Below are positions 5,669-43,834 of a stretch of 64,000 nt of DNA, piece by piece. The DNA is taken from the NCBI GenBank assembly GCA_964342805.1, contig CAYFHQ010000004.1:5670-69669 (forward strand), read 5' to 3'. A program made the translations under genes and the position numbers. Positions within the stretch are counted from its first letter, which is position 1. Each line of letters opens with the position of its first letter. Source of the stretch: an uncultured Peptostreptococcaceae bacterium (lineage in GTDB: Bacteria > Bacillota > Clostridia > Peptostreptococcales > Acidaminobacteraceae). Under the pieces are notes generated by a model that saw only the letters and a program-made list of their open reading frames with translations, was not told the origin of the DNA and searched no databases.

Positions 5669-8714
<3,046 letters not shown>

Positions 8715-19294: not shown

Positions 19295-19300
19295 GTAGAG

Positions 19301-26625: not shown

Positions 26626-26630
26626 AAGAA

Positions 26631-26671
26631 CAGGAACTCTCACTTTGTGAAAGTTCCTGATTTTTTTTTTT
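26631..26671 (+). terminator. rho-independent terminator after tRNA-Arg
   Basis: Stem CAGGAACT / AGTTCCTG, then a T11 run. Confidence 0.75.
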
Positions 26672-26679
26672 GAAAATCC

Positions 26680-26708
26680 TTGCGAATGAAGTTCGGGTAT
26701 TGTATAAT
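26680..26708 (+). promoter_or_regulatory. sigma-A-type promoter for tadA / tRNA-Ser / SRP RNA
   Basis: TTGCGA (26680-26685), 17 nt spacer, TATAAT (26703-26708). Confidence 0.55.
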
Positions 26709-26739
26709 CAATTTTGTCGGTAACGAACGGAGCGATCCT

Positions 26740-27189
26740 ATGCATGAAAAGTTCATGGCACTTGCTTTAGAAGAAGCACAAAAAGCAGCTGCAATCGGAG
26801 AAGTTCCAATTGGAGCAGTCATTGTTCAAAATGGCATTGTTGTTGGAAGAGGTCATAACCTTAGAGAAACAACAAAAGATCCAACTGCCCATGCCGAAAT
26901 GATTGCCATTCAAGACGCTGCAAAGCAATTAGGTGGTTGGCGATTGATTCAGTGTGAAATGTATGTTACCATTGAGCCATGTCCCATGTGTGCTGGTGCC
27001 ATATTCCAATCAAGAATCGACAAGCTATACATCGGTTCGATGGATCCCAAGGGTGGTGCTGTAGGTTCTCTCTACAACATTGTTCAAGACCAGCGACTCA
27101 ACCATCAGGTTGAAGTAGAAACAGGGATATTACAAGAAGCTTGCTCCAGTGTAATGAAAGAATTTTTCAGAGCACTGCGCAATAAATAG
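26740..27189 (+). CDS. tadA: tRNA adenosine(34) deaminase TadA
   Basis: ATG 26740 inside ORF 26680..27189. CDA zinc motifs HAEMIAI and PCPMCAG. 149 aa. Confidence 0.93.
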   Translation: MHEKFMALALEEAQKAAAIGEVPIGAVIVQNGIVVGRGHNLRETTKDPTAHAEMIAIQDAAKQLGGWRLIQCEMYVTIEPCPMCAGAIFQSRIDKLYIGSMDPKGGAVGSLYNIVQDQRLNHQVEVETGILQEACSSVMKEFFRALRNK

Positions 27190-27193
27190 AAGT

Positions 27194-27282
27194 GGAGAGG
27201 TGTCCGAGTTGGCTAAGGGGCACGCCTGGAAAGCGTGTAATCCCGCAAGGGACCGCGGGTTCGAGTCCCGCCCTCTCCGCCA
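27194..27282 (+). tRNA. tRNA-Ser (anticodon GGA)
   Basis: Acceptor GGAGAGG/CCTCTCC, anticodon stem CACGC/GCGTG with loop CTGGAAA, long variable arm, T loop TTCGAGT, encoded CCA. Starts 4 nt after the tadA stop. Confidence 0.95.
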
Positions 27283-27299
27283 TTTTTATACCCAAATTT

Positions 27300-27573
27300 A
27301 AGTCTGCCGTGCTAGACGGGGAGGTAGCGGTGCCCTGTAACCTGCAATCCGCTATAGCAGGGTTGATGCTCAGCTGAGGGATTTTCCTGTGAGGTCTGCC
27401 CAGAACAAGTGGTGTTGAAAATTGGGTCCTGCGCAATAGAAACTTGTGAACCCTGTCAGGTCCGGAAGGAAGCAGCAGTAAGCGAGACCTTCTATGTGCC
27501 GCGGGGGTGCCTGATTTGAGCTAACGATTCTGGTAACGTTTGTAGGATTGTTTCGAAGCTGAGTGCACGGTTT
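27300..27573 (+). ncRNA. ffs: signal recognition particle RNA, large Bacillus type (scRNA with Alu domain)
   Basis: GCCGTGCTAGACGGGGAGGTAGCGGTGCCCTGTAACCTGCAATCCGC (Alu-domain 5' part), the invariant domain IV GTCAGGTCCGGAAGGAAGCAGC, and 3' ..GTGCACGGT pairing with the 5' end. Closely parallels B. subtilis scRNA (recalled from memory). Classic tadA-scr-dnaX context. Ends are approximate (+/-10 nt). Confidence 0.9.
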
Positions 27574-27681
27574 GAATTGAAACTCAAAGTCTGTTATGCA
27601 GGCTTTTTTTGTTTTTTGAAATTCTTTCGCAATCTATCCGAGTGCCTTATAATAGAAGATAGGGCCCATTGGAGGAAGATC

Positions 27682-30318
27682 ATGTCGAAAAAACAACTGC
27701 AAATATGTATTGCTGCCTACCTTCTGGCAATGATCATTCCAATCACGTTTTTAAATGTAATGATTCATCAGGAACAGGTTGCCTACAACAAGTATTTTTC
27801 AGAAACCTTGGTTGCCGATCAAATGGATCGTAAACAAGGCCAGTTTATGGAATGGATTAACCAAAAGAAAAAATATGTTGAGCAGACAAGCCTGGCCCTT
27901 GAAAACTATGTGCGGTTTTACGGATATAACGATACCCTCATTCCTCTACTTACGAGCATTAGCAAATCAGATCCTTCGCTCTTGCAGGTGTACCTCACAT
28001 CTGAATCAGGGCGTAACTTCATCTCAGAATATAAGACGCCTCGGGTCGATGGCCGAACACGACCTTGGTACATCCAAGCTATTCAGCAGGACCCATCCAG
28101 CGCGACTATATCAGAAATCTATCAGGATGTGATCACAAAAGATCGTGTCATTACTTTTTCAATCCCAATTGTCAATGCTGCCAAGGAAGCAACAGGGGTA
28201 ATTGGCTATGATATTACTCTTAATGAAGTTATCCAAACCCTTGAGGAAGACTCTCTAACAGCCATAGTCATCATTGATGAATATGGCAATGAACTCTACC
28301 ATTCATCCCTTGCAGACCAACTCAACTATTCCATACATTATGAGGACAAGGGGAACTATACCATTCAACATGACCAGGAGACCCTTTGGCATCAAAGTGC
28401 TTATGTTCTCACTGACTTAGGAGCGACTCTATTTTTTGTCCAGCCAATTGCTCAAATAGACAGGACTTACAAGGCTTCATCACAAGTGGATCAAGTGGCT
28501 CATTTCGCCTTGATTGCCCTACTTACAATCCTTTTAGTTAAGGTATTAACAGATCATTTAGGCAGACACATGGCAGTCATTACGAAAAGTGTAAACCAAT
28601 TAACCCCACCAGACCTTTCTGTCATAGCCATTCAGTTCCCAGGAGTGGATCAGGTTAGGAAACTGTTAAGTGACTTACGTGGTGAAATGGCTTTGGAAAT
28701 GAATGAATGGAAGGCCTTGGTCCAACATCAAAAGAGGATCGGTGAGGAGGCTGACCTTATTCAGTCAGCCATAGACGACAAAAATGAGGAAAAGCAGATC
28801 CTTAAAGAAGAGTTGGATAAGCTCCAAATCATATCGCGTACACTGGTTGAAAGCCTGCCAGACTACATTATTGTTTTTGACTTACACGGCCGTATATTGA
28901 ATATGAACCAGAAATTGAAGCAAGCCCTATGGAGTAGTGAAGAGGTGAATCCTCAGGAGTACACGGTAAGTCGGGTGTTTAAAGAGGCTCAAGGGGAGGC
29001 CCTTGAGGACTTCATGACCGTTTTAACCTCACGGGAATACAATGACTTAGAGCTGAATTTGCAGTTGGATCAACTAGCGCTTACAGAAGTGAAAGTCAAG
29101 ACCCACCGCTTAATGACAGACGAACGTATGATAGGCATACAAGCCATTTGTAAGGACATGTCGCAAAATCGTCAAATTCATCAGGAGATCTATCAGAGGA
29201 ACAAGGAAATCGAAATTGTGAATGATGTATCCAAACTCCTTGCTGCCTCAGATGATTTGGATAAGACCCTCCAGCGAATTGTAGACAAGGTCAGTTTGTT
29301 TTTGCATGCCTCTCTTTGTACCATTCGATTACTAACCCCTGACCAAAAACTCGTTCTCCATGCCTTTGCAGGCAGTACAGAACGAATGATCATCCAGGAC
29401 ACGCCAAGTAGTGAAGGGTCCCATATGGGGTGGTCCATCGCCCATAATGAAGTTTTACGCTTATATAGTCAATCAGACATGAAGTTCCATGACCCTGCCC
29501 TGGCAGATGCCATGGAAGAACTCCATGTGGTCGTGTATGTTCCTTTGGTTGCTCAAGGACAGTCTTATGGCGTTTTGGCTGTGACCAGTGATCATGACAT
29601 TTCCGATGAAGAAATTGAAATCCTTCAGTCACTGGCTGACCAAGCGGCCATTGCCATTGATAGAAAAAGGGTCTTTGATGAGCTTCGGTCACATTACTTC
29701 AAGACCATCGAAGCATTGGCAACAGCTGTAGAAGCCAAGGTACCAAACATGTCAGGCCACACAAAACGTGTTTCAGAGTTAGCGACGATGGTTGGCAAGA
29801 AACTCTATCTACGGCGGGACCAGCTGAGTGAGGTCCACATAGCAGGCCTTCTCCATGACATTGGTAAAATTGGCATCGAGGATCATGTCTTGTTATCAGG
29901 AGACACAGAGGACTCAGATACAATTGCGATTATTGACGCTCACCCTGCACAGTCAAAGAGCATACTATCGTCCATTGGTATTTCTGACACGATATTGCAG
30001 GGTATTTACTATCACCATAAACGTTATGATCTTAAGGGTTTCCCCTATGAGGACACAAGCATTACCTCCCAGCCCCTATTGGCACGCATTATCCAGGTTG
30101 TCGATAACTTGGACAGTATATTACTTCATGACCAAGACCAAGTGAGGATGGAGACTTTAGAGATGGCCTACCAGCGCTTGCAAAAAGAAAGTGGTACAGC
30201 CTATTGCCCTGAGATCATCAAAGTTGTTGGTGAACTCATTGCTGAGAGCCCTCTTGATATTTTGCAGTTGTATGCTGTTGAGAGTATAAAGGAGGGCATG
30301 CGGCATGAAATTTCGTAA
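27682..30318 (+). CDS. membrane sensor protein: dCache-HAMP-PAS-GAF-HD-GYP (variant GFP motif) cyclic-di-GMP phosphodiesterase family
   Basis: ATG 27682 after GGAGGA (the ORF track start 27577 would overlap the SRP RNA 3' region). Cache motif DGRTRPWY. HD domain HTKRVSEL..LLHDIGKIGI..YHHKRYDLKGFPYED, so the canonical HHExxDGxGYP reads DL-KGFP. Confidence 0.85.
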   Translation: MSKKQLQICIAAYLLAMIIPITFLNVMIHQEQVAYNKYFSETLVADQMDRKQGQFMEWINQKKKYVEQTSLALENYVRFYGYNDTLIPLLTSISKSDPSLLQVYLTSESGRNFISEYKTPRVDGRTRPWYIQAIQQDPSSATISEIYQDVITKDRVITFSIPIVNAAKEATGVIGYDITLNEVIQTLEEDSLTAIVIIDEYGNELYHSSLADQLNYSIHYEDKGNYTIQHDQETLWHQSAYVLTDLGATLFFVQPIAQIDRTYKASSQVDQVAHFALIALLTILLVKVLTDHLGRHMAVITKSVNQLTPPDLSVIAIQFPGVDQVRKLLSDLRGEMALEMNEWKALVQHQKRIGEEADLIQSAIDDKNEEKQILKEELDKLQIISRTLVESLPDYIIVFDLHGRILNMNQKLKQALWSSEEVNPQEYTVSRVFKEAQGEALEDFMTVLTSREYNDLELNLQLDQLALTEVKVKTHRLMTDERMIGIQAICKDMSQNRQIHQEIYQRNKEIEIVNDVSKLLAASDDLDKTLQRIVDKVSLFLHASLCTIRLLTPDQKLVLHAFAGSTERMIIQDTPSSEGSHMGWSIAHNEVLRLYSQSDMKFHDPALADAMEELHVVVYVPLVAQGQSYGVLAVTSDHDISDEEIEILQSLADQAAIAIDRKRVFDELRSHYFKTIEALATAVEAKVPNMSGHTKRVSELATMVGKKLYLRRDQLSEVHIAGLLHDIGKIGIEDHVLLSGDTEDSDTIAIIDAHPAQSKSILSSIGISDTILQGIYYHHKRYDLKGFPYEDTSITSQPLLARIIQVVDNLDSILLHDQDQVRMETLEMAYQRLQKESGTAYCPEIIKVVGELIAESPLDILQLYAVESIKEGMRHEIS

Positions 30319-32806
30319 TCGATTAATGCTTGTTCTCTTTATTGTTGCTTTGGTTCCAACTCTTTTAGTAGGTTTTTACCAATATAATGAGATGGTTGAA
30401 AATCGAAGACACCAGCAACTCTTTTTAATGAAGGACCAATGGGGCCACAGGTTAGAGCCCATTAAACATTGGACAGAAGAACTATCTGCTAATTTAGAAA
30501 GTTTTTTGACCAGCTATGATTTTCTCCAGCAATATGGAACAAGGGCTCAAGAACCCTTTGTAGAGTCATTTCAAGGACAATCGGAGGATAAAATTGAGTA
30601 CTGGCTAGAAGGCCAGGGGAAGGCACCCGTGTGGGTATTGGAGGAAATGTCACAAGCCCCCTACTGGATTGGACCCTTTCAAGGAGACACCTTTGACTCC
30701 AAGGTCTTCTATTATGTCCATGAACGAACGATCACTGTTCAAAAAAAACGAATGGCAGCTGCCTATCAAGTCCATGAAAAAAGATTCGAAAGTTTGTTGG
30801 GGCCAGCAACAAGTGACTACCTGGTCTTGCTTATGGTGAACGGGGAGCCGGTTTATGGTGATCCGAAGGCCTTTGAGGCCAAAGACCAATTCAAGTATGC
30901 TGGAAACCGCGTAGTTCCGTTGGAAGACAATCATTATGGCTACTATAGAGGGTTTTCAAGTGGCGCCATTGACGTGTACATGACTGGAGAGGGATTGATT
31001 CAAGCTTCGACATTTGCACAAACTGCAACACGACTGATCAATGTCCTATTCATTCCCCTTTGTTTGGCTGGCCTGGTAGCTTACGCTTTAACGACTATTC
31101 TCTTTTGGCCCTTGCGCCGCTTGGTTCAATGGGTTCAGCGGGTGAACAATAAGGATTATCGCCTGGAGGCCGCATCATCATTTGGCCTTTTTCAAGAGAT
31201 CGCCATAGACGTAGAACAAGCGACAATCAGCTATCAACAAGGCCAACAGGCCTTACAAAGCCAAATAGACATCATTGAGAGTGCCACTGAGGCCTTCAAG
31301 CAAGTGGAGCTACACCATGGTGAAGTGAAAAAGAAGCTCTCTGAGATCAAGCGGTCTCTAGGCCTGCAAAGTAGTTCCTTCTACGCCCTACTCCAATCCT
31401 TGGACGACATGGTTTGGATTACAGACGAAAACGGCAAAATCATTTATATCACAGACAAAGTAGAGCAAATGTTGGGATATCCCGCAGAACACTTAGTTGA
31501 TCAGTCCATCAATGAGCTGATAGCCCTACCCAATGTGGAAATAGCATTACAGTCAGATATTATCAACCAAACCTTAGATATGAAATGTAAAAACGGAATG
31601 GTTGAATCCTTTGTAACCAATACCATACGAATTCAAATCGAAAACCAGTCTGACATCATTTTGGGAATTGGTCGATCGGACAAGCACCTTGTAAATATGC
31701 AACGCCGGGCAAGGCGGAGGACAAAGGAACTCAAAAACATCCGAGCCATCACTAGACAGCTGGCAAGTAAACATGAAATGGATGACTTATTGGATGTTGT
31801 TCTCGTTACGATCAGTGACCTTTATGACATTGCTGCCGTAAACATACACATGTTGGATGAAAACAAGATGCTCTCTCATGTGAAGACCGCAGGCCCCTTT
31901 GTCAATGAAGTGCCTGAATCCAGTATTGATCCTGATGCGGATATCCGTGGCACAGCCATGATAGATCAAAAGTTAATGGTTGAAAAACAACTCATGGAGA
32001 TCATGTTCTCGGACCCACTCCTCATGAAGCCCTTCCTTCGACATGTTGGGTCGGCCGCATTTATTCCCATCATCATTGATGGAGAAGGTGTTGGCGTCAT
32101 ATCCATCTGGTTTAGGACAACCATCGGAGAGTCAGATTTAGACATGCTCAATGCCTTGGCGATTCAATCAACGATTGCAATTGAAAAATCAAGACTCTAT
32201 AGCAAGCAGCAAGAGGAGTTTGTAAAGACCATCGGGGTGCTGGCGACTGCCATTGATGCCAAAGACGCCTATACGGTTGGCCACTCCCACCGGGTGTCGC
32301 AGTTCGCCCTAACGGTAGGCAGAAAGTTAGGGCTAGACGCAGAAACCCTAGTGGATGTTGAAATTGCTGGCATTTTACACGATATAGGAAAGATTGGTAT
32401 TCCTGACTCCATCCTTGCTAAAGAAGGGAAACTCACTGGAGCGGAGTTTGCTGTCATTAAGGAGCACCCAGAAATCGGTAGTCGAATCCTCTCTCCAATC
32501 GGTTTCTCTGACAACATTACGCTTGGGGTCCTGCTACACCATAAACGATACGATGGAACAGGCTATCCTGAAACGGTTGACAGTGGTCAACCACCATTGA
32601 TATCCTTCATTATAGGTGCAGCCGATGCCCTCGACGCCATGACCAGCAACCGGTCATATACGGTTGCAAGGAGTCTAGGAGCAGCAGTAGAGGAACTCAA
32701 GCGGTGCAGCGGTACACAGTTCCATCCAGAGGTTATAAAAGTCATTGATCATATGTATCAAAATGAACCTGACATACTCCAGGAAATCATAGCTGGGAAA
32801 GGATAA
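30305..32806 (+). CDS. membrane sensor HD-GYP cyclic-di-GMP phosphodiesterase (TM-sensor-HAMP-PAS-GAF-HD-GYP)
   Basis: 833 aa. Overlaps the upstream paralogue by 14 nt. HSHRVSQF..ILHDIGKIGIPDSIL..LLHHKRYDGTGYP is a canonical HD-GYP. Confidence 0.88.
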   Translation: MKFRNRLMLVLFIVALVPTLLVGFYQYNEMVENRRHQQLFLMKDQWGHRLEPIKHWTEELSANLESFLTSYDFLQQYGTRAQEPFVESFQGQSEDKIEYWLEGQGKAPVWVLEEMSQAPYWIGPFQGDTFDSKVFYYVHERTITVQKKRMAAAYQVHEKRFESLLGPATSDYLVLLMVNGEPVYGDPKAFEAKDQFKYAGNRVVPLEDNHYGYYRGFSSGAIDVYMTGEGLIQASTFAQTATRLINVLFIPLCLAGLVAYALTTILFWPLRRLVQWVQRVNNKDYRLEAASSFGLFQEIAIDVEQATISYQQGQQALQSQIDIIESATEAFKQVELHHGEVKKKLSEIKRSLGLQSSSFYALLQSLDDMVWITDENGKIIYITDKVEQMLGYPAEHLVDQSINELIALPNVEIALQSDIINQTLDMKCKNGMVESFVTNTIRIQIENQSDIILGIGRSDKHLVNMQRRARRRTKELKNIRAITRQLASKHEMDDLLDVVLVTISDLYDIAAVNIHMLDENKMLSHVKTAGPFVNEVPESSIDPDADIRGTAMIDQKLMVEKQLMEIMFSDPLLMKPFLRHVGSAAFIPIIIDGEGVGVISIWFRTTIGESDLDMLNALAIQSTIAIEKSRLYSKQQEEFVKTIGVLATAIDAKDAYTVGHSHRVSQFALTVGRKLGLDAETLVDVEIAGILHDIGKIGIPDSILAKEGKLTGAEFAVIKEHPEIGSRILSPIGFSDNITLGVLLHHKRYDGTGYPETVDSGQPPLISFIIGAADALDAMTSNRSYTVARSLGAAVEELKRCSGTQFHPEVIKVIDHMYQNEPDILQEIIAGKG

Positions 32807-34939: not shown

Positions 34940-35539
34940 ATGTCGCATTTTGCGGCCCCTATAGCACGGCTGATTGAAGAGTTCAGTCGTCTTCCTGGGA
35001 TTGGTCGAAAGACAGCCCAGCGATTGGCCTTTCATGTGATCAACAGCCGTGAGGACTACGCTGTAAGTCTGTCAGAAGCCATTCTTGAAGCCAAGAAGAA
35101 AATGAAGTACTGTAGCCAGTGTTTCAACTTGACGGACGTGGAGCTATGTCCCATATGTGCGGACCCCAAGCGGGACCAGAGCATGATTTGTGTAGTGGAG
35201 GACCCCAAGGACTTAATCGCCATTGAGCGAACCAAGGAGTTCCACGGCGTTTATCATGTCCTACATGGTTCCATATCACCCATGGACGGAATTGGCCCAG
35301 ACGACATCAAGCTACGGGAGCTGATCATCCGTGTTCAGTCCAGCGACGTGTCAGAGGTGATCCTGGCAACTAACCCCACGATAGAAGGGGAGGCAACTTC
35401 CATGTATATTTCAAAACTCCTAAGCCCTGCGGGGATATTAGTAACGCGACTGGCCCACGGGGTTCCCGTTGGCGGAGACTTGGAATATGCTGACGAAGTA
35501 ACCTTGTCTAAGGCCCTTGAGGGCAGACGAAAGCTATAA
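34940..35539 (+). CDS. recR: recombination protein RecR
   Basis: 199 aa. Hh[16 protein letters not shown], zinc finger [16 protein letters not shown], Toprim VVEDPKD. Confidence 0.96.
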
Positions 35540-35564
35540 TGAAATACCAGATTAATGACAGTGG

Positions 35565-35597
35565 TCCCCTGCTCTTTGGCAGGGGATTTTCATTTTC
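35565..35597 (+). terminator. rho-independent terminator after recR
   Basis: Stem TCCCCTGC / GCAGGGGA, loop TCTTTG, tail TTTTCATTTT. Confidence 0.7.
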
Positions 35598-35679
35598 TTG
35601 GAAAATTCTTTATTTTTCTGTGAGTTCAATGTTTTGGTGGGGTAGGAATACTCTATCACGTTTGATAGGGGGAATAAGA

Positions 35680-36321
35680 ATGAAAAGAGAAACGTTACAA
35701 TCTTCAATGCGAAATGAACATGGTAGTGGAATTGCAAGAAAACTACGTCGTGAAGGTAAAATACCTGCAGTACTCTATGGACATGGCAGCGAAACAAAGA
35801 GCCTTATGCTTGATGGTAGCCAAATCGAACATTTCTTAGTACACCATGGTGTAGGAGCTACTGTTGATTTAAATATTGACGGTATTAGTGTTTTTGCAAT
35901 GGTAAAGGACTATCAGCGAACCAACCTCACAAGAGACTTACTACATATTGATTTCCAGGAGCTTCACAAGGGAGAAAAAGTGCGCTTGAATGTGCCTATC
36001 CATTTCTTGAACAAGGAAGCCGTGGAAGACGCAAAATCAGTGATCGTGGAGCAAATCCATGAAATTGAAATGACCGTTCTTCCTAAGGACCTCATTGAGA
36101 TCATCAACCTGGATGTAAGCACCATGAACCATGGAGAGGCCATCCGTGTAATGGATTTGGATATCTTCAAGGACGATCGTTTTGATGTCTTCAATGATCC
36201 GGACACAGTTGTTGTAAGCTTGACAGCTGCAGGCACCAAGGTGACCGAAGAAACACCTGCTGATGAACCCCTGTCCGTTTCAGTGGAGATGGTTGATCAG
36301 GCATCCAATGGGGATGAATAA
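35680..36321 (+). CDS. ctc: 50S ribosomal protein L25 / general stress protein Ctc
   Basis: ATG 35680 after AGGGGGA (the ORF track start 35539 runs through the recR terminator). GSGIARKLRREGKIPAVLYGHG.., long Ctc-type C-terminal domain, acidic tail. Confidence 0.9.
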   Translation: MKRETLQSSMRNEHGSGIARKLRREGKIPAVLYGHGSETKSLMLDGSQIEHFLVHHGVGATVDLNIDGISVFAMVKDYQRTNLTRDLLHIDFQELHKGEKVRLNVPIHFLNKEAVEDAKSVIVEQIHEIEMTVLPKDLIEIINLDVSTMNHGEAIRVMDLDIFKDDRFDVFNDPDTVVVSLTAAGTKVTEETPADEPLSVSVEMVDQASNGDE

Positions 36322-36337
36322 GACAAATTGTAACGAG

Positions 36338-36367
36338 GAGCCAGCATTGAGCTGGCTCTTTTTTTTA
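36338..36367 (+). terminator. rho-independent terminator after ctc
   Basis: Perfect 8-bp stem GAGCCAGC / GCTGGCTC, 5-nt loop, T9 run. Confidence 0.85.
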
Positions 36368-36376
36368 TGGGAATGC

Positions 36377-36405
36377 TTGACAATTACTTCCATTATACAT
36401 ATATT
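36377..36405 (+). promoter_or_regulatory. near-consensus sigma-A promoter of the Tad-like locus
   Basis: TTGACA (36377-36382), 17 nt spacer, TATATT (36400-36405). GGAGG RBS lies 10 nt before ATG 36429. Confidence 0.6.
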
Positions 36406-36428
36406 GGGAATGTGGAGGTTGTTAAAAA

Positions 36429-37814
36429 ATGACAAATGAAAGCAGGTACACACTTATTGTAGCGCCTCACCAGCAGAGTATTGAGGACTTACGGGAGGCC
36501 ATGATTCATCGGTATCGCCATTATGGCATCCACAGTCGTTTGATTGTTAGGCACACGATTGAAGGGGCCTATCAGATCCTTGAACACGAGCAGATTGACT
36601 ATTTCATCGTGTTTGACGATGTACTCGGAGCCAGACAGTTGGCCTGTCAGCCTATCCCAACGGTCCTCATTACTAGTGGCATGTCCAACCAAGACATGGA
36701 TGCCTGGAACAAGTCCAAGGACCACTTGAAGGTGGCGCAAGAGGTGGAGCTCAAGGGGGAGGATATTGTTGACTTGCTTATGGTAGACGGGGTGTCCACA
36801 GGTCGGATGCCAGTGGACAAACAGTTGGCCACCATGGTGAACCAATATATCAGTCGGTCCTCCCTTGACACCAAGTCTGATTATGATTGGATGAGCCGTT
36901 ATCTTGAGGATTCTGATAGGAAAAAGCTCAAAGACCTCCTACCCACAGCCATAAAAAGCCAACTCAGTAAGAGTGTCGTGCGGACATTTGAGACCAATGA
37001 GAGAGGCCTATATACCATATGGGATCAACCGATTTTCGCCAGCGACTTGGCCTACATATTGGCTAAGGCAACAAAAAAACGTGTTCTCCTGATTGATGCC
37101 AACCGCCTAGAACCCAGCTTAGACTTACATTTGGGTGTTGACGCCCATGCCGGTCAATTAAAGTTGAACTTCGGCCAACCCTACGCCTCCGGTTTGAAGC
37201 TGGCCTTTGAAGCCATGGGGAAGAGGATGATGAACCGGGCCCTCCTGGAACGGGTCAGTAACCGGGTAGGGAGGGAGACTTTGTGGGTTCTTACTGGCGC
37301 AGAAGCCATACATGATTTTGAGTACTATGATCGTGAGCGTTTTGAACGACTCTTGCAATTGTCACGAATGAGCTTTGACTTTGTATTTGTGGCGACCAGT
37401 GGATTTATGTATGACCTATTTACCTGTGTGGCCATGTATGAGGCTGACCGGTGCCTGGTCCCCTTTGAAGGGAAACTCGATCGGGTCCGAGCTTTGAACA
37501 GAACCCTGATGTTTTTAGAGGAAAAGCAAAAGATTTCCTATAACAAACACGTGTTTTGTGCCTATAACTATGACCGGAAGGTGGACTTGTCCATGGATGT
37601 ACTCAATGACGTCTTCAATGGCCAAGTGGGGACACAAATTCCCTATAACATCAAAAGAGAAATCTATAGAAGCAAAAAAAGAAGACATATGGGTTTACTC
37701 AAGGAAAAGGACGTGAAAGGGTATGTCAAAGTGTTAATGGAGTTGGGCATACCGGGTCACAAGCGCTTGGGCAAGCTTTATAGAAAGGGGTTTGGATATG
37801 AGCTTGGTGACTAG
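36429..37814 (+). CDS. TadZ/CpaE-like protein: receiver-like N-domain plus ParA/MinD-like domain without a P-loop
   Basis: 461 aa. The N-terminal ~120 aa has an alternating strand/helix pattern (TLIVAPH.., DYFIVFDDV). The ParA-like part keeps ..KKRVLLIDAN.. and DFVFVATSG. Where KGGxGK[ST] is expected it reads IWDQPIFASDLAYILA. First gene of a cpaF/tadB/tadC cluster. Confidence 0.55.
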   Translation: MTNESRYTLIVAPHQQSIEDLREAMIHRYRHYGIHSRLIVRHTIEGAYQILEHEQIDYFIVFDDVLGARQLACQPIPTVLITSGMSNQDMDAWNKSKDHLKVAQEVELKGEDIVDLLMVDGVSTGRMPVDKQLATMVNQYISRSSLDTKSDYDWMSRYLEDSDRKKLKDLLPTAIKSQLSKSVVRTFETNERGLYTIWDQPIFASDLAYILAKATKKRVLLIDANRLEPSLDLHLGVDAHAGQLKLNFGQPYASGLKLAFEAMGKRMMNRALLERVSNRVGRETLWVLTGAEAIHDFEYYDRERFERLLQLSRMSFDFVFVATSGFMYDLFTCVAMYEADRCLVPFEGKLDRVRALNRTLMFLEEKQKISYNKHVFCAYNYDRKVDLSMDVLNDVFNGQVGTQIPYNIKREIYRSKKRRHMGLLKEKDVKGYVKVLMELGIPGHKRLGKLYRKGFGYELGD

Positions 37815-39000
37815 CCATCATGATCCCATGTTTGAAAGGCCTGTCCATGTGACAAAGGACATCACTGAATTGGTGGGCTTTATTACCAGTGACATTCTAA
37901 AGGAGAGTCCTGCCTTGGTTGCTGACACGGAAGCGGGGCTAACGCCTAAGACTTTACTGGAAGAGGACATCGTCAAACGTCTAGATCGCTATCAGCAGTC
38001 CCTGAATCGTTCCCAACTGACCAAGGCAGTGATGGATTTCATGTTTGGGTATGGGATTCTGCAGGAGTATATCGAGGATGAGACCATCACGGATATCGAT
38101 GGTATGGCCAAGGACTATTTCACATGCAAGCGGGGGAGAGAGGTTCAAAGGCTACCTGTGGCCTTTCCCACCGAAGAAGCCTTTGAAAACTATTGCAAGT
38201 TACTGGTGATCAGAAATGGGGGCATTATCAATGAAAATGACACCCATGCCAGGGTTGCAGACAGCAAGTACAGGCTACGGATCAATGTGTCCATAGCACC
38301 AAGGAATCTAACGGGGCCCTCCATTAATATCCGAAAACATCGTTTATCCAGTTATGGCTTAAAGGACTTGGAGACCCTGGGCATGCTAACTGTGGACCAG
38401 GCCGCCTTTTTTAGGGAGGTTGCCAGGGGGGACCAAAGGGTTCTCATAGTAGGCAAGGGCGGTGCCGGAAAAACAACCCTCCTAAGGGCACTCTTGGAGG
38501 AGGTCCCCGACCACAAGAGAATCCTGGTTTGTGAGTCGGATAGTGAGTTGTACCCCAAACGAGAAAATACGATTGTTCAGCGGATAAAGAAGGCCCATGA
38601 AGGTGGACGACCTGTGACCCTGCAAGACATTGTCCGTGATGGTTTGACCATGTCCCTAGACGGTTACTGTGTGGGTGAGATTACTGGACCCGAGGCGTGG
38701 GACTTTGTACGGGCAGGCTTTACAGACCATCAAACCTGGGGGACCATCCACGGTGTGGGCACATCGGAAGGTTTGGAGCGATTACTGACCCTCATGGACC
38801 AGGACCAAACCCATATGGGTGTAGAACGGATTTGTCAGGTTATATCCAAGAGCATTGATCTTGTTGTCTACCTCAAGGGCTTTCAAGTTCAGGAGGTCGC
38901 GAGGGTCGTTGCTGGACGTGGGGACTTTCTTGTTCAGCCCCTCGACCACCTTTCTCCTGTAGTGCCCACCGGGGAAACAGTCTGCGGTGAAAGGATATGA
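37792..39000 (+). CDS. CpaF/TadA-family type II/IV secretion ATPase
   Basis: 402 aa. Overlaps the upstream gene by 23 nt. Walker A VGKGGAGKTTLL, Asp box VCESDSEL, Walker B DGYCVGE, His box TDHQTWGTIHG. Upstream region GPSINIRKH parallels the CpaF TIRKF. Confidence 0.8.
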   Translation: MDMSLVTSHHDPMFERPVHVTKDITELVGFITSDILKESPALVADTEAGLTPKTLLEEDIVKRLDRYQQSLNRSQLTKAVMDFMFGYGILQEYIEDETITDIDGMAKDYFTCKRGREVQRLPVAFPTEEAFENYCKLLVIRNGGIINENDTHARVADSKYRLRINVSIAPRNLTGPSINIRKHRLSSYGLKDLETLGMLTVDQAAFFREVARGDQRVLIVGKGGAGKTTLLRALLEEVPDHKRILVCESDSELYPKRENTIVQRIKKAHEGGRPVTLQDIVRDGLTMSLDGYCVGEITGPEAWDFVRAGFTDHQTWGTIHGVGTSEGLERLLTLMDQDQTHMGVERICQVISKSIDLVVYLKGFQVQEVARVVAGRGDFLVQPLDHLSPVVPTGETVCGERI

Positions 39001-39971
39001 ACCCCATGCTGTTAATTGGTTTACAAGTAGTAACTGCCCTGTTTATTGGTTGTTACCTCACCACGTGGCTCAGCCGAATACGTATTCATGTAACCTTGAA
39101 AGACCTTCTAGTCCAAGGGGGCCAGGGTCGTCATGGTCCAGAGGGTGACTATACAGACCTTTACTTGTTGAACAAGCAAATATCCGGATGGACAATTGAA
39201 GGTGGCTGGCTGGAGGACCTGGAAAATCGCTTGCTTGTTCGTTCCGGTCTAAGGCAAAGGTTCCCTTGGATCAACATACAGGTCGTCCTGGGTTTTGAAC
39301 TTGCCCTTGCCTGCCTGACCGGGGTGTCTGTTTATTGGGGGACTGGGGTATGGATGATAGCTGTTATAGCTACCTTGATCAGTACGGCCTTCCCACCCAT
39401 GATGATTGGAATACTGGCCTTCCTTAGAGCCCAGAGACTCCGTATGGAATTGGCCGACTTTTTAGCGGTCTTACACCGTGGCGTTTGTGTGAAAGCGGAC
39501 GTCCTATATGCCTTTGAACAATCCCTGGACAGTGGTCTTAAGGACCCCCTAAGGTCTTTGATACATGCCTTTGTTGTCCAAGTCAAGCGGGGCATGCCTG
39601 TGGAAGACGCCCTGGAACTCTTAACTTACTATGTAGACCAACCCCACTTTCGAACGGCTATGCTCAGCATCCGTCAGACCCTGGTCTACCGAGGAGACGT
39701 GGTCACCATGTTGGAAAACCTCAGCTGGGAGGCCTTCCGCCTGGAGGACGAGTACAATCGCAGGCGGATTTCCACCCTGAAAGACCGATTTCTCCTATTG
39801 GGTGTCTCCCTGGGTTGCCTCCTTGCAGTTGGGGGCTATATGGCCCTCAATGGGCGCGTGAAAGCCTTCTATTTTCAGACGCCGTTGGGTACAACGATTG
39901 CTGTTGTTGCGGGGGTGGCTTTTCTATTGGGTCTAGTGATCGCCATGCAAATGGGCCGATTCAAATACTGA
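38997..39971 (+). CDS. type II secretion system F-family platform protein (TadB-like)
   Basis: 324 aa. 4-nt overlap with the ATPase gene. TM-cytoplasmic helical domain-TM layout (..LADFLAVLHRGVCVKADVLYAFEQSL..). Confidence 0.7.
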   Translation: MNPMLLIGLQVVTALFIGCYLTTWLSRIRIHVTLKDLLVQGGQGRHGPEGDYTDLYLLNKQISGWTIEGGWLEDLENRLLVRSGLRQRFPWINIQVVLGFELALACLTGVSVYWGTGVWMIAVIATLISTAFPPMMIGILAFLRAQRLRMELADFLAVLHRGVCVKADVLYAFEQSLDSGLKDPLRSLIHAFVVQVKRGMPVEDALELLTYYVDQPHFRTAMLSIRQTLVYRGDVVTMLENLSWEAFRLEDEYNRRRISTLKDRFLLLGVSLGCLLAVGGYMALNGRVKAFYFQTPLGTTIAVVAGVAFLLGLVIAMQMGRFKY

Positions 39972-39972
39972 G

Positions 39973-40821
39973 GTGACCATGAAAGAAATTATCCAATTAC
40001 TCATGATCGTGTCAACAGCCTACCTGGCCAATCTGGTGATCAAGGCGACTGTAGACCGGTGGGGGCTACCCCTAAGGGGCGTACGTTATGGAGCAAAAAT
40101 GGCCCGACAAAGCCACTGGGATCCCCTAAAAGACGTGCAAGGGGAATGGCTTGAGTCCATCAGGCACAAAATGCGCCAAGCGGGCTATGAAGCGCCGTGG
40201 ATGCCCTTTTTATATCTCATGCTCATGACCCTGGTCCCCCTTGTACTTTCTGGTCTAGCCCTGGCTACCAGATGGCCTGACCCAAGGGGAGCCATGATCC
40301 TGCTCCTCATGATACCCACCTTGACCACAGTTCACTTCAAAGAGTCTGAACGGAAAATCAGTAAGCAGTTTGAAAAGGATATCTACAAGGTCTTTAAGTA
40401 TCTCCACCACCAAACGGAAGCGGGTATACTGCCCACAGATAGCCTTCGGGGTATTTATCAGGTTGTTGAGGAGCCCATACTCAAAAAAAGGTTGATCAAG
40501 TTGTCGGCAACGTATGGCCAGACCCTTGACCTTGAGACCGCTTTAAACCAGTTTAAAGAGGGATATGGGACCCGGTCAGCTGAAAGTCTCTGCATTGCCA
40601 TTCGTCAAGGTATTCAGACTGGAGAAAATGTAACCTTGCTCCGCCATCAGGAGCGGGTCATGTTTCAAAAGTACTTTCATTATATTCAAGAGGAAACCAA
40701 TCGAATGCGGTCTTTGACCTTTGCCATCGTAGCCATTGATTGTACCATTGTGGTCCTCATGATTGGCATCCCCTTGTGGATGGAAACGGCCAGGGCACTC
40801 ACAAGATTATTTCAACAATAG
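39973..40821 (+). CDS. type II secretion system F-family platform protein (TadC-like)
   Basis: 282 aa (GTG 39973, or ATG 39979). Same TM-helical-TM layout (..DIYKVFKYLHHQTEAGILPTDSLRGIY..). Starts 1 nt after the upstream stop. Confidence 0.7.
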   Translation: MTMKEIIQLLMIVSTAYLANLVIKATVDRWGLPLRGVRYGAKMARQSHWDPLKDVQGEWLESIRHKMRQAGYEAPWMPFLYLMLMTLVPLVLSGLALATRWPDPRGAMILLLMIPTLTTVHFKESERKISKQFEKDIYKVFKYLHHQTEAGILPTDSLRGIYQVVEEPILKKRLIKLSATYGQTLDLETALNQFKEGYGTRSAESLCIAIRQGIQTGENVTLLRHQERVMFQKYFHYIQEETNRMRSLTFAIVAIDCTIVVLMIGIPLWMETARALTRLFQQ

Positions 40822-40838
40822 TTGCAAAGGAGGAAATC

Positions 40839-41048
40839 ATGCTGTTATATATTCAAATGAAACTAAGGGAAGTCTGGAATAACTATAAAGGGGAATTTGG
40901 TATTGGAGCAGTCTTAAGCATTGCCATCGCCTTGATCGTGTCGGCCTTCATCTTGATTCCGGGCGTTCAGACTTTCGCTCGATCAGTCGTGGCCAGTTTA
41001 CAAGGCTGGTGGTCGACCTTCTCAACCAAGATTTTTACTACCAGTTAA
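40839..41048 (+). CDS. small hydrophobic pilin-like protein (candidate major subunit of the Tad-like system)
   Basis: ATG 40839, 5 nt after AAGGAGG (inside ORF 40740..41048). 69 aa: MLLYIQMKLREVWNNYKGEFGIGAVLSIAIALIVSAFILIPG.. A charged leader, Gly, then a 22-aa hydrophobic helix. Sits where flp sits in Tad loci. Confidence 0.45.
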   Translation: MLLYIQMKLREVWNNYKGEFGIGAVLSIAIALIVSAFILIPGVQTFARSVVASLQGWWSTFSTKIFTTS

Positions 41049-41069
41049 GGCCACGAAGAGGAGGGGACG

Positions 41070-41681
41070 ATGATCAGTAAAAAGATGCGGTTTGTAGCAA
41101 GTCTTGTGGTGACCCTACTCTTGTTGGGTATTCAAGTGTGGCTTGTTAATCAAGCCAACACCCCTGTCGCCCATACGACCCTTTATTATCTAAAAGAAGA
41201 TGTACGGGTGGGAATGCCACTTGGCCAAGAACATGTAGGGTCCATGGAGGTCGTGGCCAAAAACTTGGACGACAGTTGGCTAAGGCAAGAGTCAGATATT
41301 ATAGGCCATTATGTCAAAAGTAGTTTGAGACCGGGTCAAATCATCAGTAAAGAGGATCGTGCATCAACAGTGGTCCAGGCTTTGGGGGCAGCAGTACCTG
41401 CAGATCGTAGACGAATTACTTTGGAACTTCGTCCCCACCAAGCCAATGGTTGGCTCCTGGAAGAGGGAGACACTATCGAAGTGGCCCTTCTGACAGAAGA
41501 TCAGCCCGGTCAGACTTTTCAAGGCCAAGTACTGGCTATTTTAAATGAACAGCTGGTCGTCTTATCAGGTGCCCCTTGGTCCAGCCAGCCGAGATATCTA
41601 CAGGTTACTGTAGAAAAAGAAGACGCTCTAACCATTTTGGAGAAACTCAGGTTTAGTGAGGTGCAAATCCTCCTTCCATAG
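41070..41681 (+). CDS. CpaB/RcpC-like Flp pilus assembly protein (TM anchor plus SAF domain)
   Basis: 203 aa. N-terminal TM (FVASLVVTLLLLGIQVWL), SAF-like ..LKEDVRVGMPLGQEHV.. and ..SSLRPGQIISKEDR.., C-terminal ..RRITLEL..LLEEGDTIEV.. pattern. Confidence 0.6.
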   Translation: MISKKMRFVASLVVTLLLLGIQVWLVNQANTPVAHTTLYYLKEDVRVGMPLGQEHVGSMEVVAKNLDDSWLRQESDIIGHYVKSSLRPGQIISKEDRASTVVQALGAAVPADRRRITLELRPHQANGWLLEEGDTIEVALLTEDQPGQTFQGQVLAILNEQLVVLSGAPWSSQPRYLQVTVEKEDALTILEKLRFSEVQILLP

Positions 41682-41690
41682 ACGGGTTTG

Positions 41691-41717
41691 TTGATTCCCT
41701 AGTACTAGTGGTATAAT
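41691..41717 (+). promoter_or_regulatory. candidate promoter with extended -10 for the hybrid sensor gene
   Basis: TTGATT (41691-41696), 15 nt spacer containing TGg, TATAAT (41712-41717). Confidence 0.4.
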
Positions 41718-41768: not shown

Positions 41769-43376
41769 ATGACTACGCTGAGTATGGAACAGCTCAAGGA
41801 AGAACTCACCAAGGCGAATCAACGAATTGAACAGTTGGAAATTCAACTCAAAGACAATGAACAAGAAAAAATCAAAGAAATTTTAGACCTCATACCGGAT
41901 ATGATCTTAATCGTCGACACTGATATGAAAGTGAGATGGGCCAATCGTTCTGCATTGGAAAAGAGAAAGGATGCTCTAGGCCAACATTGTTACAAGGCCT
42001 ATAGGGGGCTCAATAGTCCCTGTACGGACTGTCCTTGTGCCATTGCCCTTCAAACGGGTGAAAAGGTCTCCGGTGTCATCGCCTTACAGGACCCGGACAG
42101 CGACACCGTGACCCACTGGGAGAACTTTGGTATCCCCTTGGTTGACCACAGGGGTGAGGTGACGGGTATCCTGGAAATCAGCCGAGACGTGACGGCCTTG
42201 GTGGAGTACAACCAAAAAATCCATGAATATACGGAAGCCTTAGAGCTGACGCGTAAGGAATTGGAGTCTTCCAATAGTGTGAAGACGGAGTTTTTAGGTA
42301 ATCTTGCTCAAGATCTAGCTGTTCCTGTCAACAGTGTGGTTGGCATGGTTCAAATGCTAGAAGGCTCTTCGTTAGATAACAGGCAACAAGAGTACTTGGA
42401 TGTATTGGGTCAATCAACAGACAAAATAAAGTCCATTACCCAAAACATTGAGGACATGTCCCGTCTTGAAACGGGGAAGATTTCATTGAAACATGAACCC
42501 TTTCACTTAAATCAGATTTTTGAGGAACTGTCTGCTATTTATGGAAAGAAGGCAAAAGCCAAGGACATCATATTTGAGTCCACATCCGCTGTTGACCAAC
42601 AAGTCTACATGGGTGATGGTCGACGGCTCCGCCAAGCCTTACTCAACTTGCTCAACCATGCAATGAAGCAAAATGAAAATGGTCGTGTGAAGTTTTCCAT
42701 GAAGCGAATAGAAAATGGATATGACTATGGGGTGATTTCCTTCACGATTGAGGATGGGAGTCAACAACGATCGTCTATGCCCGTTCACTTTGACCATGGA
42801 TTGGTATTGGAAAACCAACTGGAAAAGCACTACGCTACGGCTGAAATCGGGATTGCCATTACTTATCAGATCATTGACCTGATGAATGGGGATATCATTG
42901 TCCAGCAAGATAATACGGCCGGTTCAACCATTAGTGTGCAGTTGCGTTTTGACAAACAAATGACCAAGGCTGTGGAAACGACCACTGATCCTCAACCTGC
43001 AAAACGTACGAGTAAGCTTCGTATTCTTATTGCTGAAGACGAGATTGTAGGACGAGTCACCTACAAATTAATGCTGAGGGACCGTTATGATATTGTCTTT
43101 GCTAAGAATGGGGAGGAAGCCGTTCAGTTGTACTTTGATGTGGAACCTGATCTTGTATTGCTGGATGTAATGATGCCTATCCTCAATGGTTTTGAAGCCT
43201 TTGATGCCATTGACTCCAAAGCCATTAGTCGCGTCCCCATTATAGCCGTGTCGTCTAGGGTAATAAGTACAGAAAAAGAGTACTTGACCAGCTATGGTTT
43301 TGATGATTATTTGGCCAAGCCATTTGAAAATAAGGACTTGGAGCGGATTATCCATACCCATGGGAAGAAGCGATAA
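41769..43376 (+). CDS. hybrid PAS / HisKA-like / HATPase-like / receiver protein with degenerate kinase motifs (pseudo-histidine kinase)
   Basis: ATG 41769 (the ORF track starts at TTG 41763). PAS with HCY..C..C.C. The H-box reads EFLGNLAQDLAVPVN (Gln where the phospho-His is expected). N-box LLNLLNHAMK. G1/G2 are not recognisable (IEDGSQQ; TAEIGIAIT). The receiver looks intact (ILIAEDE.., LVLLDVMMP, YLAKPF). Confidence 0.8.
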   Translation: MTTLSMEQLKEELTKANQRIEQLEIQLKDNEQEKIKEILDLIPDMILIVDTDMKVRWANRSALEKRKDALGQHCYKAYRGLNSPCTDCPCAIALQTGEKVSGVIALQDPDSDTVTHWENFGIPLVDHRGEVTGILEISRDVTALVEYNQKIHEYTEALELTRKELESSNSVKTEFLGNLAQDLAVPVNSVVGMVQMLEGSSLDNRQQEYLDVLGQSTDKIKSITQNIEDMSRLETGKISLKHEPFHLNQIFEELSAIYGKKAKAKDIIFESTSAVDQQVYMGDGRRLRQALLNLLNHAMKQNENGRVKFSMKRIENGYDYGVISFTIEDGSQQRSSMPVHFDHGLVLENQLEKHYATAEIGIAITYQIIDLMNGDIIVQQDNTAGSTISVQLRFDKQMTKAVETTTDPQPAKRTSKLRILIAEDEIVGRVTYKLMLRDRYDIVFAKNGEEAVQLYFDVEPDLVLLDVMMPILNGFEAFDAIDSKAISRVPIIAVSSRVISTEKEYLTSYGFDDYLAKPFENKDLERIIHTHGKKR

Positions 43377-43401
43377 GTAAAACAGACAAATACGATACAA
43401 A

Positions 43402-43442
43402 CGCTTGGGAAGTCATCTTGCTTCCCAGGCGTTGTTTTTTTG
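43402..43442 (+). terminator. rho-independent terminator after the hybrid sensor gene
   Basis: 11-bp stem CGCTTGGGAAG / CTTCCCAGGCG (one G-U pair), 8-nt loop, tail TTGTTTTTTTT. Confidence 0.8.
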
Positions 43443-43453
43443 TGGAAAAACAT

Positions 43454-43482
43454 TTGACAAAGCCCTATCAAATAGGTAAGAT
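43454..43482 (+). promoter_or_regulatory. sigma-A-type promoter of the DUF2325-like gene
   Basis: TTGACA (43454-43459), 17 nt spacer, TAAGAT (43477-43482). Confidence 0.5.
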
Positions 43483-43487
43483 ATAAA

Positions 43488-43502
43488 TGATAATGATTAT
43501 CA
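43488..43502. promoter_or_regulatory. Fur box (perfect 7-1-7 motif)
   Basis: TGATAATGATTATCA equals the B. subtilis Fur 7-1-7 consensus TGATAATnATTATCA. It starts 6 nt after the -10 hexamer and ends 1 nt before the AGGAGG RBS. Confidence 0.75.
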
Positions 43503-43516
43503 ATAGGAGGTTGAAA

Positions 43517-43834
43517 ATGAATGCGTTATTGATCGGAGCAGATCGCTTGGGGAATATTCCATCTTTACTCACTTCCCATGGGATTGCAGACTATACCCAT
43601 TGGGATGGTCGAAAAAAGGGCATGCGTAAAATGAAAATTCCGACAGATACAGATCTTGTGATCATTTTTACGGATTTCATAGAGCACCGCCTGACAGAAC
43701 GAATAAAAAGCGAATCCAAACAAATGAATATTCCCTGTATATTCTCCAGGAGAGCGGTATCAGATTTATCGGTTCAACTGGACTTTTGTAAAAAGTGTGG
43801 TCTTTGCGATTTTGGAGACCCCCAATTGGGATGA
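43517..43834 (+). CDS. DUF2325-like small protein with C-terminal Cys cluster
   Basis: ATG 43517 after AGGAGG. 105 aa: MNALLIGADRLGNIPSLLTSHGI..HWDGRKKG..DLVIIFTDFIEH.. fits my recollection of DUF2325. C-terminal CKKCGLCD. Confidence 0.55.
   Translation: MNALLIGADRLGNIPSLLTSHGIADYTHWDGRKKGMRKMKIPTDTDLVIIFTDFIEHRLTERIKSESKQMNIPCIFSRRAVSDLSVQLDFCKKCGLCDFGDPQLG

Follow-up and report, generated by a model that had tools for sequence, protein, structure and literature searches.

What does a cluster of six tightly packed genes near the replication origin of an uncultured Peptostreptococcaceae bacterium encode, and could so small a set of components build anything? Tad pili are widespread organelles of colonisation and surface sensing, the mechanism of which is known almost wholly from diderm Proteobacteria. 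The genes in question lie at positions 36377–41681 of a 64,000-nucleotide stretch of contig CAYFHQ010000004.1 (assembly GCA_964342805.1), hereafter the window, and the original prediction, made from the sequence alone, described them as a compact, diverged Tad/Flp-like type IV filament locus. Our analysis supports this as the core reading. We consider that there is about an even chance that the locus is a reduced, vertically inherited chromosomal Tad/Flp-type (type IVc) filament machine of an uncultured monoderm lineage of Clostridia. It is no isolated oddity: at least 80 loci in Clostridia share its gene order and form one family with it.

The interval contains six co-directional open reading frames (ORFs) that are joined, in order, by junctions of −17, −4, +7, +17 and +21 nt, in agreement with the predicted overlaps or gaps of under 25 nt. 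Independent gene calls on the source contig (ENA ERZ27290035 k119_1408554, 96.8 kb) match all six, and all six are intact, with strong ribosome-binding sites (RBSs) and coupled stop/start codons. The features of the locus are as follows.

36335–36370, plus strand: intrinsic-terminator-like hairpin (36335–36361) and T-run, which ends ctc (L25) and isolates the operon
36377–36405, plus strand: sigma-70-type promoter-like site TTGACA-17-TATATT, 11 of 12 consensus positions matched, a consensus match only
36429–37814, plus strand: gene in the TadZ/CpaE position, 461 aa; ATG at 36429, RBS GGAGG at 36414–36418
37798–39000, plus strand: cpaF, 400 aa; a TTG start at 37792 is also possible according to the ORF list
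38997–39971, plus strand: TadB-like gene, 324 aa, inner-membrane platform protein of the T2SSF/GspF family
39979–40821, plus strand: TadC-like gene, 280 aa, second platform protein of the T2SSF family
40839–41048, plus strand: Flp-sized pilin-like gene, 69 aa; strong RBS AAGGAGG
41070–41681, plus strand: SAF/CpaB-like (CpaB/RcpC-like) gene, 203 aa; strong RBS
41769–43376, plus strand: hybrid histidine kinase gene, 535 aa, with Pfam domains PAS-HisKA-HATPase_c-REC
43400–43443, plus strand: strong intrinsic-terminator-like hairpin (43400–43433) behind the histidine kinase gene

The hairpin behind ctc has a stem of 11 bp with 6 GC pairs and is followed by TTTTTTATGG. The near-consensus promoter that had been predicted ahead of the genes is present directly behind it; since promoter-like sites are no more frequent in the region than expected (10 observed, 11 expected), the match alone is not significant, and the promoter is plausible because of its position behind the ctc terminator. 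An antisense promoter-like site (TTGACA-16-GATAAT, 39988–40015, minus strand, 11 of 12 matches) at the tadB/tadC junction is probably meaningless, given that such sites occur at chance number. No terminator-like site separates the SAF gene from the histidine kinase gene. Within the 87 nt between them lies TTGATT-15-TATAAT (41691–41717), the spacer of which is too short for the scan, and which could be a weak internal promoter for the histidine kinase. The hairpin at 43400–43443 (stem of 14 bp, 7 GC pairs, followed by GTTTTTTTGT) is likely the 3′ end of the transcription unit. An identical reduced layout is found in two independent assemblies, ENA ERZ27290035 and Logan ERR868484, so the small gene set is not an assembly artefact.

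The 80 related loci were found in GTDB, all in Clostridia and nearly all in metagenome-assembled genomes, with hosts in the Acetivibrionales, Oscillospiraceae, Hungateiclostridiaceae, Peptostreptococcales and other groups; the cultured hosts are Fusibacter bizertensis and F. tunisiensis, both in the clade of the window. The family order is TadZ-like, cpaF, tadB, tadC, pilin-like, (DUF4320-like), (TadE-like), SAF/CpaB, and its recurrence in ~80 species shows that the arrangement is not due to chance. Orthologues gathered from these 80 species loci were used for the family-level tests that follow. All six window proteins are singletons in clustering at 90% identity. Two metagenome scans for closer relatives, which could have shown whether the reduced layout is typical of the lineage, returned nothing above 52% CpaF identity, and 62–64%-identical relatives occur only on 1.9-kb contigs.

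The ATPase is the sole window protein to exceed a curated family threshold, matching Pfam T2SSE with 74.3 bits against a gathering score of 24.9. As predicted for a CpaF/TadA-type enzyme, its translation holds the Walker A sequence VGKGGAGKTTLL, the Asp box VCESDSEL, the Walker B motif DGYCVGE and the His box TDHQTWGTIHG, and the key residues of the Walker A, Asp-box, Walker B/Glu and His-box elements are invariant across 33 CpaF homologues. Its top NCBIfam match is the TadA-family model TIGR03819 (120 bits, under the equivalog cut-off). Among PDB structures, Caulobacter CpaF (8rkd/9e24) is the best match at E = 1e-26, followed by VirB11 (4e-13) and FlaI (1e-7), and the archaeal GspE-type ATPase is far weaker than Caulobacter CpaF. 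Hundreds of proteins from Clostridia, some of them named CpaF by their source, share ~50% identity with it.

The other machine components are recognizable when the family is considered as a whole. The TadB-like window protein matches T2SSF at E = 9e-4 (19.7 bits) and the TadC-like protein at E = 8e-3 (16.5 bits), both under the gathering score of 25.2; at E ≤ 0.01, 27 of 31 TadB-like orthologues (best 1e-8) and 24 of 31 TadC-like orthologues (best 2.4e-10) match the same model, bearing out the two platform proteins at the family level. Against the PDB, the TadB-like family profile finds a weak match to PilC (3jc8, E = 0.01), and the TadC-like profile finds no significant relative. The CpaB-like protein has a membrane anchor at its N-terminus and, beyond it, SAF and RcpC beta-clip domains. 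It matches TIGR03177 (pilus_cpaB) at E = 5e-9, under the cut-off, and Pfam RcpC and SAF below threshold, and its family profile matches RcpC (9gzr, E = 3.7e-6) and FlgA (4.6e-6), so the SAF/CpaB-like assignment holds for the family too. The platform, CpaB/RcpC and ParA-like identities thus hold at the family level only.

These scores bear on whether the locus encodes a type IV filament system in the first place, or whether weak profile matches have misled us. Five of the six window proteins lie under curated thresholds in Pfam and NCBIfam, and the TadC-like profile has no significant PDB relative. The ATPase is nevertheless clearly of the CpaF type, most orthologues of both platform proteins match T2SSF, the CpaB-like profile finds RcpC, the pilin family carries a prepilin motif and the gene order is that of canonical tad loci. 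A non-filament identity is therefore very improbable, and is effectively refuted by the family-level profiles. Together, the Pfam matches of the orthologues, the profile matches in the PDB and the Foldseek matches described below make the Tad-type reading sound.

The first gene of the operon encodes a protein in three parts: an orphan N-terminus (residues ~1–190), a MinD/ParA-fold domain that lacks a Walker A motif (~190–445) and a basic amphipathic C-terminal helix. The original prediction called it a ParA-like TadZ homologue that has lost its P-loop; the ParA-like fold and the missing P-loop were both borne out. The Pfam AAA_31 match is sub-threshold and begins at profile position 20, and a family profile of the C-terminal domain finds ParA/MinD structures at E ~1e-4. 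The AlphaFold2 (AF2) model has predicted local distance difference test (pLDDT) values of 70–87 at residues 190–440, and a Foldseek search with it retrieves 3ea0 (E = 1e-11, TMt 0.74), MinD (1e-9) and the Eubacterium rectale TadZ (3fkq, E = 2e-6). The operon position is that of TadZ. Where the Walker A loop of a ParA protein would lie, the window protein reads WDQPIFAS, and the family consensus in place of KGGxGKT is I-T-V-W-D-N-x-E-F-G-C-E. No TadZ-position protein in any locus homologue, the window included, has a Walker A motif, and a Walker A-like motif is found in just 2 of 156 retrieved family representatives. The absence of the P-loop is therefore common to the whole family.

That family is small and difficult to detect. 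A word-indexed search with the single window sequence found only the protein itself, and the same type of search retrieved just 9 proteins when run with a profile of 33 locus-derived domains; it took an exhaustive HMMER scan, covering 1.84 billion representative proteins, to size the family at 304 members (E ≤ 1e-3). The N-terminus, which had been described as receiver-like, has no Pfam match at E ≤ 1 and is shared by none of the 156 family proteins. At E ≤ 0.001, Response_reg and TadZ_N are matched by none of 110 family members, and alignment to receiver domains with hhalign gives probabilities of 0.4–0.5%, the resemblance being limited to a loose beta-alpha pattern. The AF2 model is unusable at residues 1–188, where pLDDT is <50. 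None of these tests lends support to the receiver-like label. At the other end of the protein, the sequence KRLGKLYRKGF has a hydrophobic moment of 0.80, which ranks in the top 0.5% among the protein's own 11-mers, and appears to resemble the membrane-targeting helix of MinD and CpaE.

Comparison with MinD/ParA ATPases clarifies what has been kept and what has been lost. The fold of residues ~190–445 is shared (Foldseek E = 1e-11 to 1e-8), as are the conserved Walker A′ and Walker B-like Asp residues and the basic amphipathic C-terminal helix, but throughout the family W-D-x-x-x-F-(G/A)-x-E takes the place of the KGGxGK[ST] loop. Consequently, ATP-driven dimerisation or switching is not expected in the TadZ-like family. 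The family also differs from characterized TadZ proteins: the E. rectale protein (3FKQ) combines an atypical receiver with an ATP-binding domain, whereas the proteins studied here lack the P-loop and carry at their N-terminus either a Hanks kinase (in a sister clade, see below) or, in the window, the orphan domain. The TadZ-like protein is probably a nucleotide-independent, membrane-tethered scaffold around CpaF.

In the predicted layout of the 69-aa protein, a basic leader runs into KG|EFGIG and a hydrophobic helix, and a Pro-Gly break separates this helix from an amphipathic one that bears a WW motif. Members of its family are conserved across 65 non-redundant loci; the predicted mature form in the window is ~51 aa, equal to the predicted family median of 51 aa. 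In 49 of the 65 members (75%), the cleavage region reads G|F(G/A)xx(E/D), the classical prepilin site with Phe at +1 and an acidic residue at +5. Another 14 members, among them the window protein, read (K/R)G|(E/D/Q)F(G/A)xxx; all 14 belong to the histidine-kinase clade described below, and most are without the acidic +5 residue. The AF2 model (pLDDT 80) places helices at residues 2–18, 22–39 and 41–67 with a break at the G-E-F site, and this predicted arrangement is the shape expected of a Flp-type pilin. No Pfam or NCBIfam model matches any pilin-like member, Flp_Fap and Flp1_like match none of 30 family members, and Foldseek found no matches to the 69-aa model. The earlier observation that the candidate lacks the Flp G/xxxxEY motif is confirmed, as the window sequence is KG|EFGIGAV with no E5-Y6. 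The pilin-like designation thus survives in part: the family is Flp-sized and prepilin-like and three-quarters of it carries the textbook site, but the canonical Flp motif is missing. These sequence features make it very probable that the protein is a true pilin with a class III signal peptide, and such a pilin would imply an unlinked prepilin peptidase. No further class III signal proteins were found in the window, where the remaining N-terminal anchors are of the ordinary kind.

What sets the window apart is the absence of two genes. In its relatives, the pilin gene is followed by one for a small bitopic DUF4320-like protein of ~125 aa (11 of 21 match DUF4320, best E 1.5e-4), and then by one of ~155–250 aa encoding a protein with a TadE-like N-terminus, (K/R)GS|xxx(E/D) plus a hydrophobic helix; of these TadE-like proteins (~160 aa), 1 of 21 matches Pfam TadE. 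The window is the sole locus, out of ~70 with the region available, in which the pilin gene adjoins cpaB, across a 21-nt gap. Profiles of the DUF4320-like and TadE-like proteins of the relatives, run against all frames of the 64 kb, found nothing, which upholds the predicted absence of TadE/F/G-type minor pilins from the window. The loss of these two genes is what is particular to the window, and it is the source of the main uncertainty about function.

One explanation is that the locus is a recently disabled remnant, in which a two-gene deletion between the pilin gene and cpaB stopped assembly and the rest has yet to decay. The unique pilin–cpaB junction would fit such an event, as would the finding that minor pilins are essential in the model system (PMC13170226) and the orphan TadZ-like N-terminus without detectable relatives. 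Decay is nonetheless difficult to reconcile with six intact ORFs that retain their RBSs and translational coupling, with conserved catalytic residues in CpaF, and with a deletion so precise that it left a good cpaB RBS. The same layout occurs in independent samples, the synteny is conserved and the missing genes could lie elsewhere in the genome. We therefore regard a dead locus as unlikely.

The prepilin peptidase is the other missing component. The A24 motif G-x-G-D-x-K occurs in no ORF of the 64 kb. The multi-transmembrane ORFs of the window match YidC, CvpA, DUF2232 and TgpA in Pfam, apart from two without a match, a 553-aa ORF (1219–2880) and a 173-aa ORF (19281–19802, minus strand) that is likely spurious. 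The predicted lack of an A24 peptidase in the window was thus borne out. The relatives are alike in this respect: a motif scan found no A24-type peptidase within 10 kb of 86 related loci. A linked but unrecognized peptidase was considered for these loci and rejected, as A24 motifs are absent and no multi-transmembrane ORF other than TadB/C recurs, the largest cluster having 3 members in 86 loci. The window thus has the loss of the P-loop and the lack of a linked peptidase in common with its whole family.

Prepilin peptidases may be encoded apart from their systems or shared between them (Denise et al., PMC6668835), and the minor pilins and the peptidase could both lie elsewhere in the genome, making this an ordinary, complete Tad pilus of the Clostridia family with its genes divided between sites. 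No relative has a linked peptidase, and just ~97 kb of the genome is known. Yet in ~60 scorable relatives the accessory genes sit inside the operon, so that moving both would be unusual, and nothing resembling the DUF4320-like or TadE-like proteins is present anywhere in the 64 kb. We give this split arrangement little credence, placing it on a par with the disabled remnant.

Several of these observations weigh against a working Tad/Flp-type filament machine. The window lacks both genes that almost all of its relatives have between the pilin gene and cpaB, and Caulobacter cannot produce Tad pili without minor pilins (PMC13170226). Position +5 of the window pilin is not acidic, the 64 kb show no prepilin peptidase and five of the six proteins fall below curated thresholds. 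Two further points, concerning the kinases described next, qualify the regulatory part of the reading: the closest relatives of the window, L003 and L007, carry EcsC in the place of the histidine kinase, and the clade split represents about one evolutionary event, so that the correlation with the histidine kinase is suggestive and not statistical proof.

In most loci, the TadZ-like first gene bears an N-terminal Hanks-type Ser/Thr kinase domain, as in L005 (8280–10001; Pkinase E = 3e-48) and in ~55 other kinase-fused loci (e.g. L008–L013 and L015–L042); in the broader set, 21 of 110 TadZ-like family representatives have such a domain. Kinase linkage was counted over non-redundant loci with downstream sequence available, 36 kinase-fused and 17 kinase-less. 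All 36 kinase-fused loci are without an adjacent histidine kinase and without recR/rlmL synteny. In 15 of the 17 kinase-less loci, the window included, a homologue of the hybrid histidine kinase lies 10–100 nt behind the SAF gene, and most kinase-less loci with upstream sequence are flanked by recR (with or without ctc) on one side and by rlmL on the other. Kinase-fused and kinase-less loci form two cleanly separated clades in a midpoint-rooted neighbour-joining tree of CpaF, where the window falls among the kinase-less loci as sister to L003/L007, its closest relatives (51–52% CpaF identity). These two loci share with the window the synteny dnaX, ybaB, recR, ctc, locus, DUF2325, rlmL, yqeC. 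The hybrid histidine kinase at 41769–43376 is probably a regulatory seventh gene of the locus in this clade.

These findings invite a more specific proposal, which we offer tentatively and think rather unlikely: the family would be a vertically inherited, Tad-derived machine in which a nucleotide-blind TadZ scaffold is wired to phospho-signalling, through a fused Hanks kinase in one clade and a dedicated hybrid histidine kinase in the other, and the window would be its natural minimal version, with a motor, two platform proteins, one pilin and CpaB, working as a primerless filament or piston-like device.

How closely does the locus resemble known Tad systems? The Aggregatibacter tad and Caulobacter cpa loci share with it a CpaF/TadA-type motor, two paralogous T2SSF platform proteins, a ParA/MinD-fold gene directly upstream of that for the ATPase, the same gene order, a Flp-sized pilin right after the platform genes and an anchored CpaB/RcpC-like protein. 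Unlike them, the window lacks a secretin, a pilotin and TadD, none of which would be expected in a monoderm. The Walker A motif of TadZ/CpaE is deviant but ATP-binding (PMC13170226), while that of the window protein is absent; the window pilin lacks Flp E5-Y6, the TadV/CpaA peptidase is unlinked, and TadE/F or CpaJ/K/L-type minor pilins are missing. Under the published rules for the type IV filament superfamily (TFF-SF; PMC6668835), the missing flp, tadV, tadE and tadZ matches would probably lead to a classification as 'generic TFF' and not 'Tad'. The Tad-like loci of Gram-positive Clostridia are of the same broad class as the window locus; Imam et al. (2011, PMC3244431) already noted that some Flp-like pilins lack Tyr+6, that divergent tad operons exist in Clostridia and that some loci have an unusual composition. 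Most Gram-positive tad loci contain tadV (PMC3244431), in contrast to the window family, which never has it within 10 kb. The Flp pilus of Micrococcus luteus (PMC4322843), which supports DNA uptake, likewise derives from a monoderm tad-type locus in which accessory genes are few and the Flp-like pilin is small. No competence genes are seen near the window locus, for which the M. luteus pilus is at most a possible functional analogue.

A mechanism for the reduced Tad/Flp-type machine can be drawn by analogy with the Caulobacter Cpa and Aggregatibacter Tad systems, the roles of CpaE, CpaB and the minor pilins being those established in the model system (PMC13170226). The 69-aa prepilin would insert in the membrane, and an unlinked A24 peptidase would cut it after the Gly of KG|EFGIG. 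A CpaF hexamer would dock on the TadB/TadC platform and drive polymerisation of the ~51-aa, two-helix pilin, and the membrane-anchored CpaB/RcpC-like protein would form an alignment cage at the outer face of the membrane. Without a P-loop, the TadZ-like protein would be unable to dimerise by sandwiching ATP; it probably scaffolds CpaF instead, in a membrane-tethered, nucleotide-independent manner. In the clade of the window, the adjacent hybrid histidine kinase would set the activity or expression of the machine, a role that would fall to the scaffold-fused Hanks kinase in the sister clade. Our results establish the operon structure, the family-level identities of the genes, the traits common to the family and its division into two clades, whereas pilin processing, assembly without the DUF4320-like and TadE-like proteins, scaffolding by the TadZ-like protein and regulation through the histidine kinase are inferred.

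The surroundings of the locus offer clues to its history and perhaps its use. The window is origin-proximal, with dnaA ~24.5 kb from the locus and a cumulative GC-skew minimum at ~9–10 kb, and the predicted housekeeping setting is corroborated by this skew and by the following genes.

10392–11807, minus strand: dnaA, by Pfam
9031–10143, minus strand: dnaN, by Pfam
5669–7585, minus strand: gyrB, by Pfam
13092–13805, plus strand: yidC, by Pfam
7557–8714 and 3146–5656: ORFs that are recF and gyrA candidates by position only

The GC content of the locus (0.47–0.51) is higher than that of the 21–26 kb block (0.39–0.41), as had been noted, but it is not anomalous, since the 3–8, 32–34 and 57–63 kb regions also reach 0.47–0.51; composition therefore gives no sign of foreign origin. 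A horizontal-transfer island was considered and rejected, as the GC content is within the range of the window and the recR…rlmL synteny is clade-wide. The synteny from recR/ctc to rlmL and the unremarkable GC content argue for vertical inheritance and a maintained function.

Such a function need not be an extended filament. The machine may have ceased to make an external adhesive pilus and, with a single pilin and neither priming nor tip proteins, work as a short pseudopilus or piston that secretes through the wall or takes up DNA. The TadE-like and DUF4320-like genes have been lost while those for the motor, platform and CpaB remain intact, the locus adjoins ybaB and recR across the clade, and Flp pilus-dependent natural transformation is documented in the monoderm M. 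luteus (PMC4322843). The annotated neighbours, though, include neither comEA/comEC-type DNA-receptor or channel genes nor obvious secreted substrates, and the recR synteny is shared by relatives that have minor pilins, so it indicates nothing specific to the reduced form. We consider a pseudopilus fairly unlikely, if marginally less so than the remnant or the split system.

Some further features of the region were recorded. The longest-ORF reading of ctc (35539–36321, 260 aa) is probably over-extended, the source call being 213 aa with L25 and TL5_C domains. Downstream, the DUF2325 gene (43487–43834) has its own promoter-like site (TTGACA-17-TAAGAT, 43454–43482) and keeps its place behind the locus in the window, L003 and L014. 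Directly upstream of dnaX lie genes for two large tandem signalling proteins (27577–30318 and 30305–32806), one of the dCache/GAF/HD type and the other of the PAS/GAF/HD type. The region 26549–27570 encodes tRNA-Arg(CCT), tRNA-Ser(GGA) and a large bacterial signal recognition particle RNA (27307–27570, 226 bits). A 462-aa ORF (22412–23800) has a C-terminal Fis-type HTH_8 domain as its sole Pfam match (E ≤ 1e-4), its N-terminal ~400 residues matching no family at that threshold. The 553-aa ORF at 1219–2880 matches nothing in Pfam at E ≤ 1e-4 and is predicted to contain three membrane helices.

Tad-like loci in Clostridia are already known in general terms (PMC3244431, PMC6668835). In the searchable literature, we found no description of the family with a P-loop-less TadZ or of the minimal gene set of the window, nor of the TadZ–Hanks kinase fusion, its alternation with an adjacent histidine kinase or the unmodelled pilin family; nothing specific was found on DUF4320 or on a TadZ without a P-loop. 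Because Pfam and NCBIfam both miss the pilin family, these systems are under-annotated in gut, digester and sediment metagenomes.

The family described here represents a large group of Clostridia that keeps a Tad-type motor together with an organiser that would not use ATP and may be coupled to Ser/Thr or His kinase signalling, and such a kinase-coupled organiser offers a concrete starting point for understanding the switching of pilus assembly in monoderms. The existence of cultured relatives in the same clade, Fusibacter bizertensis and F. tunisiensis, makes these questions testable. The window itself is a natural deletion of the minor pilin genes and, if functional, would challenge the view that priming minor pilins are obligatory for the assembly of type IV filaments.

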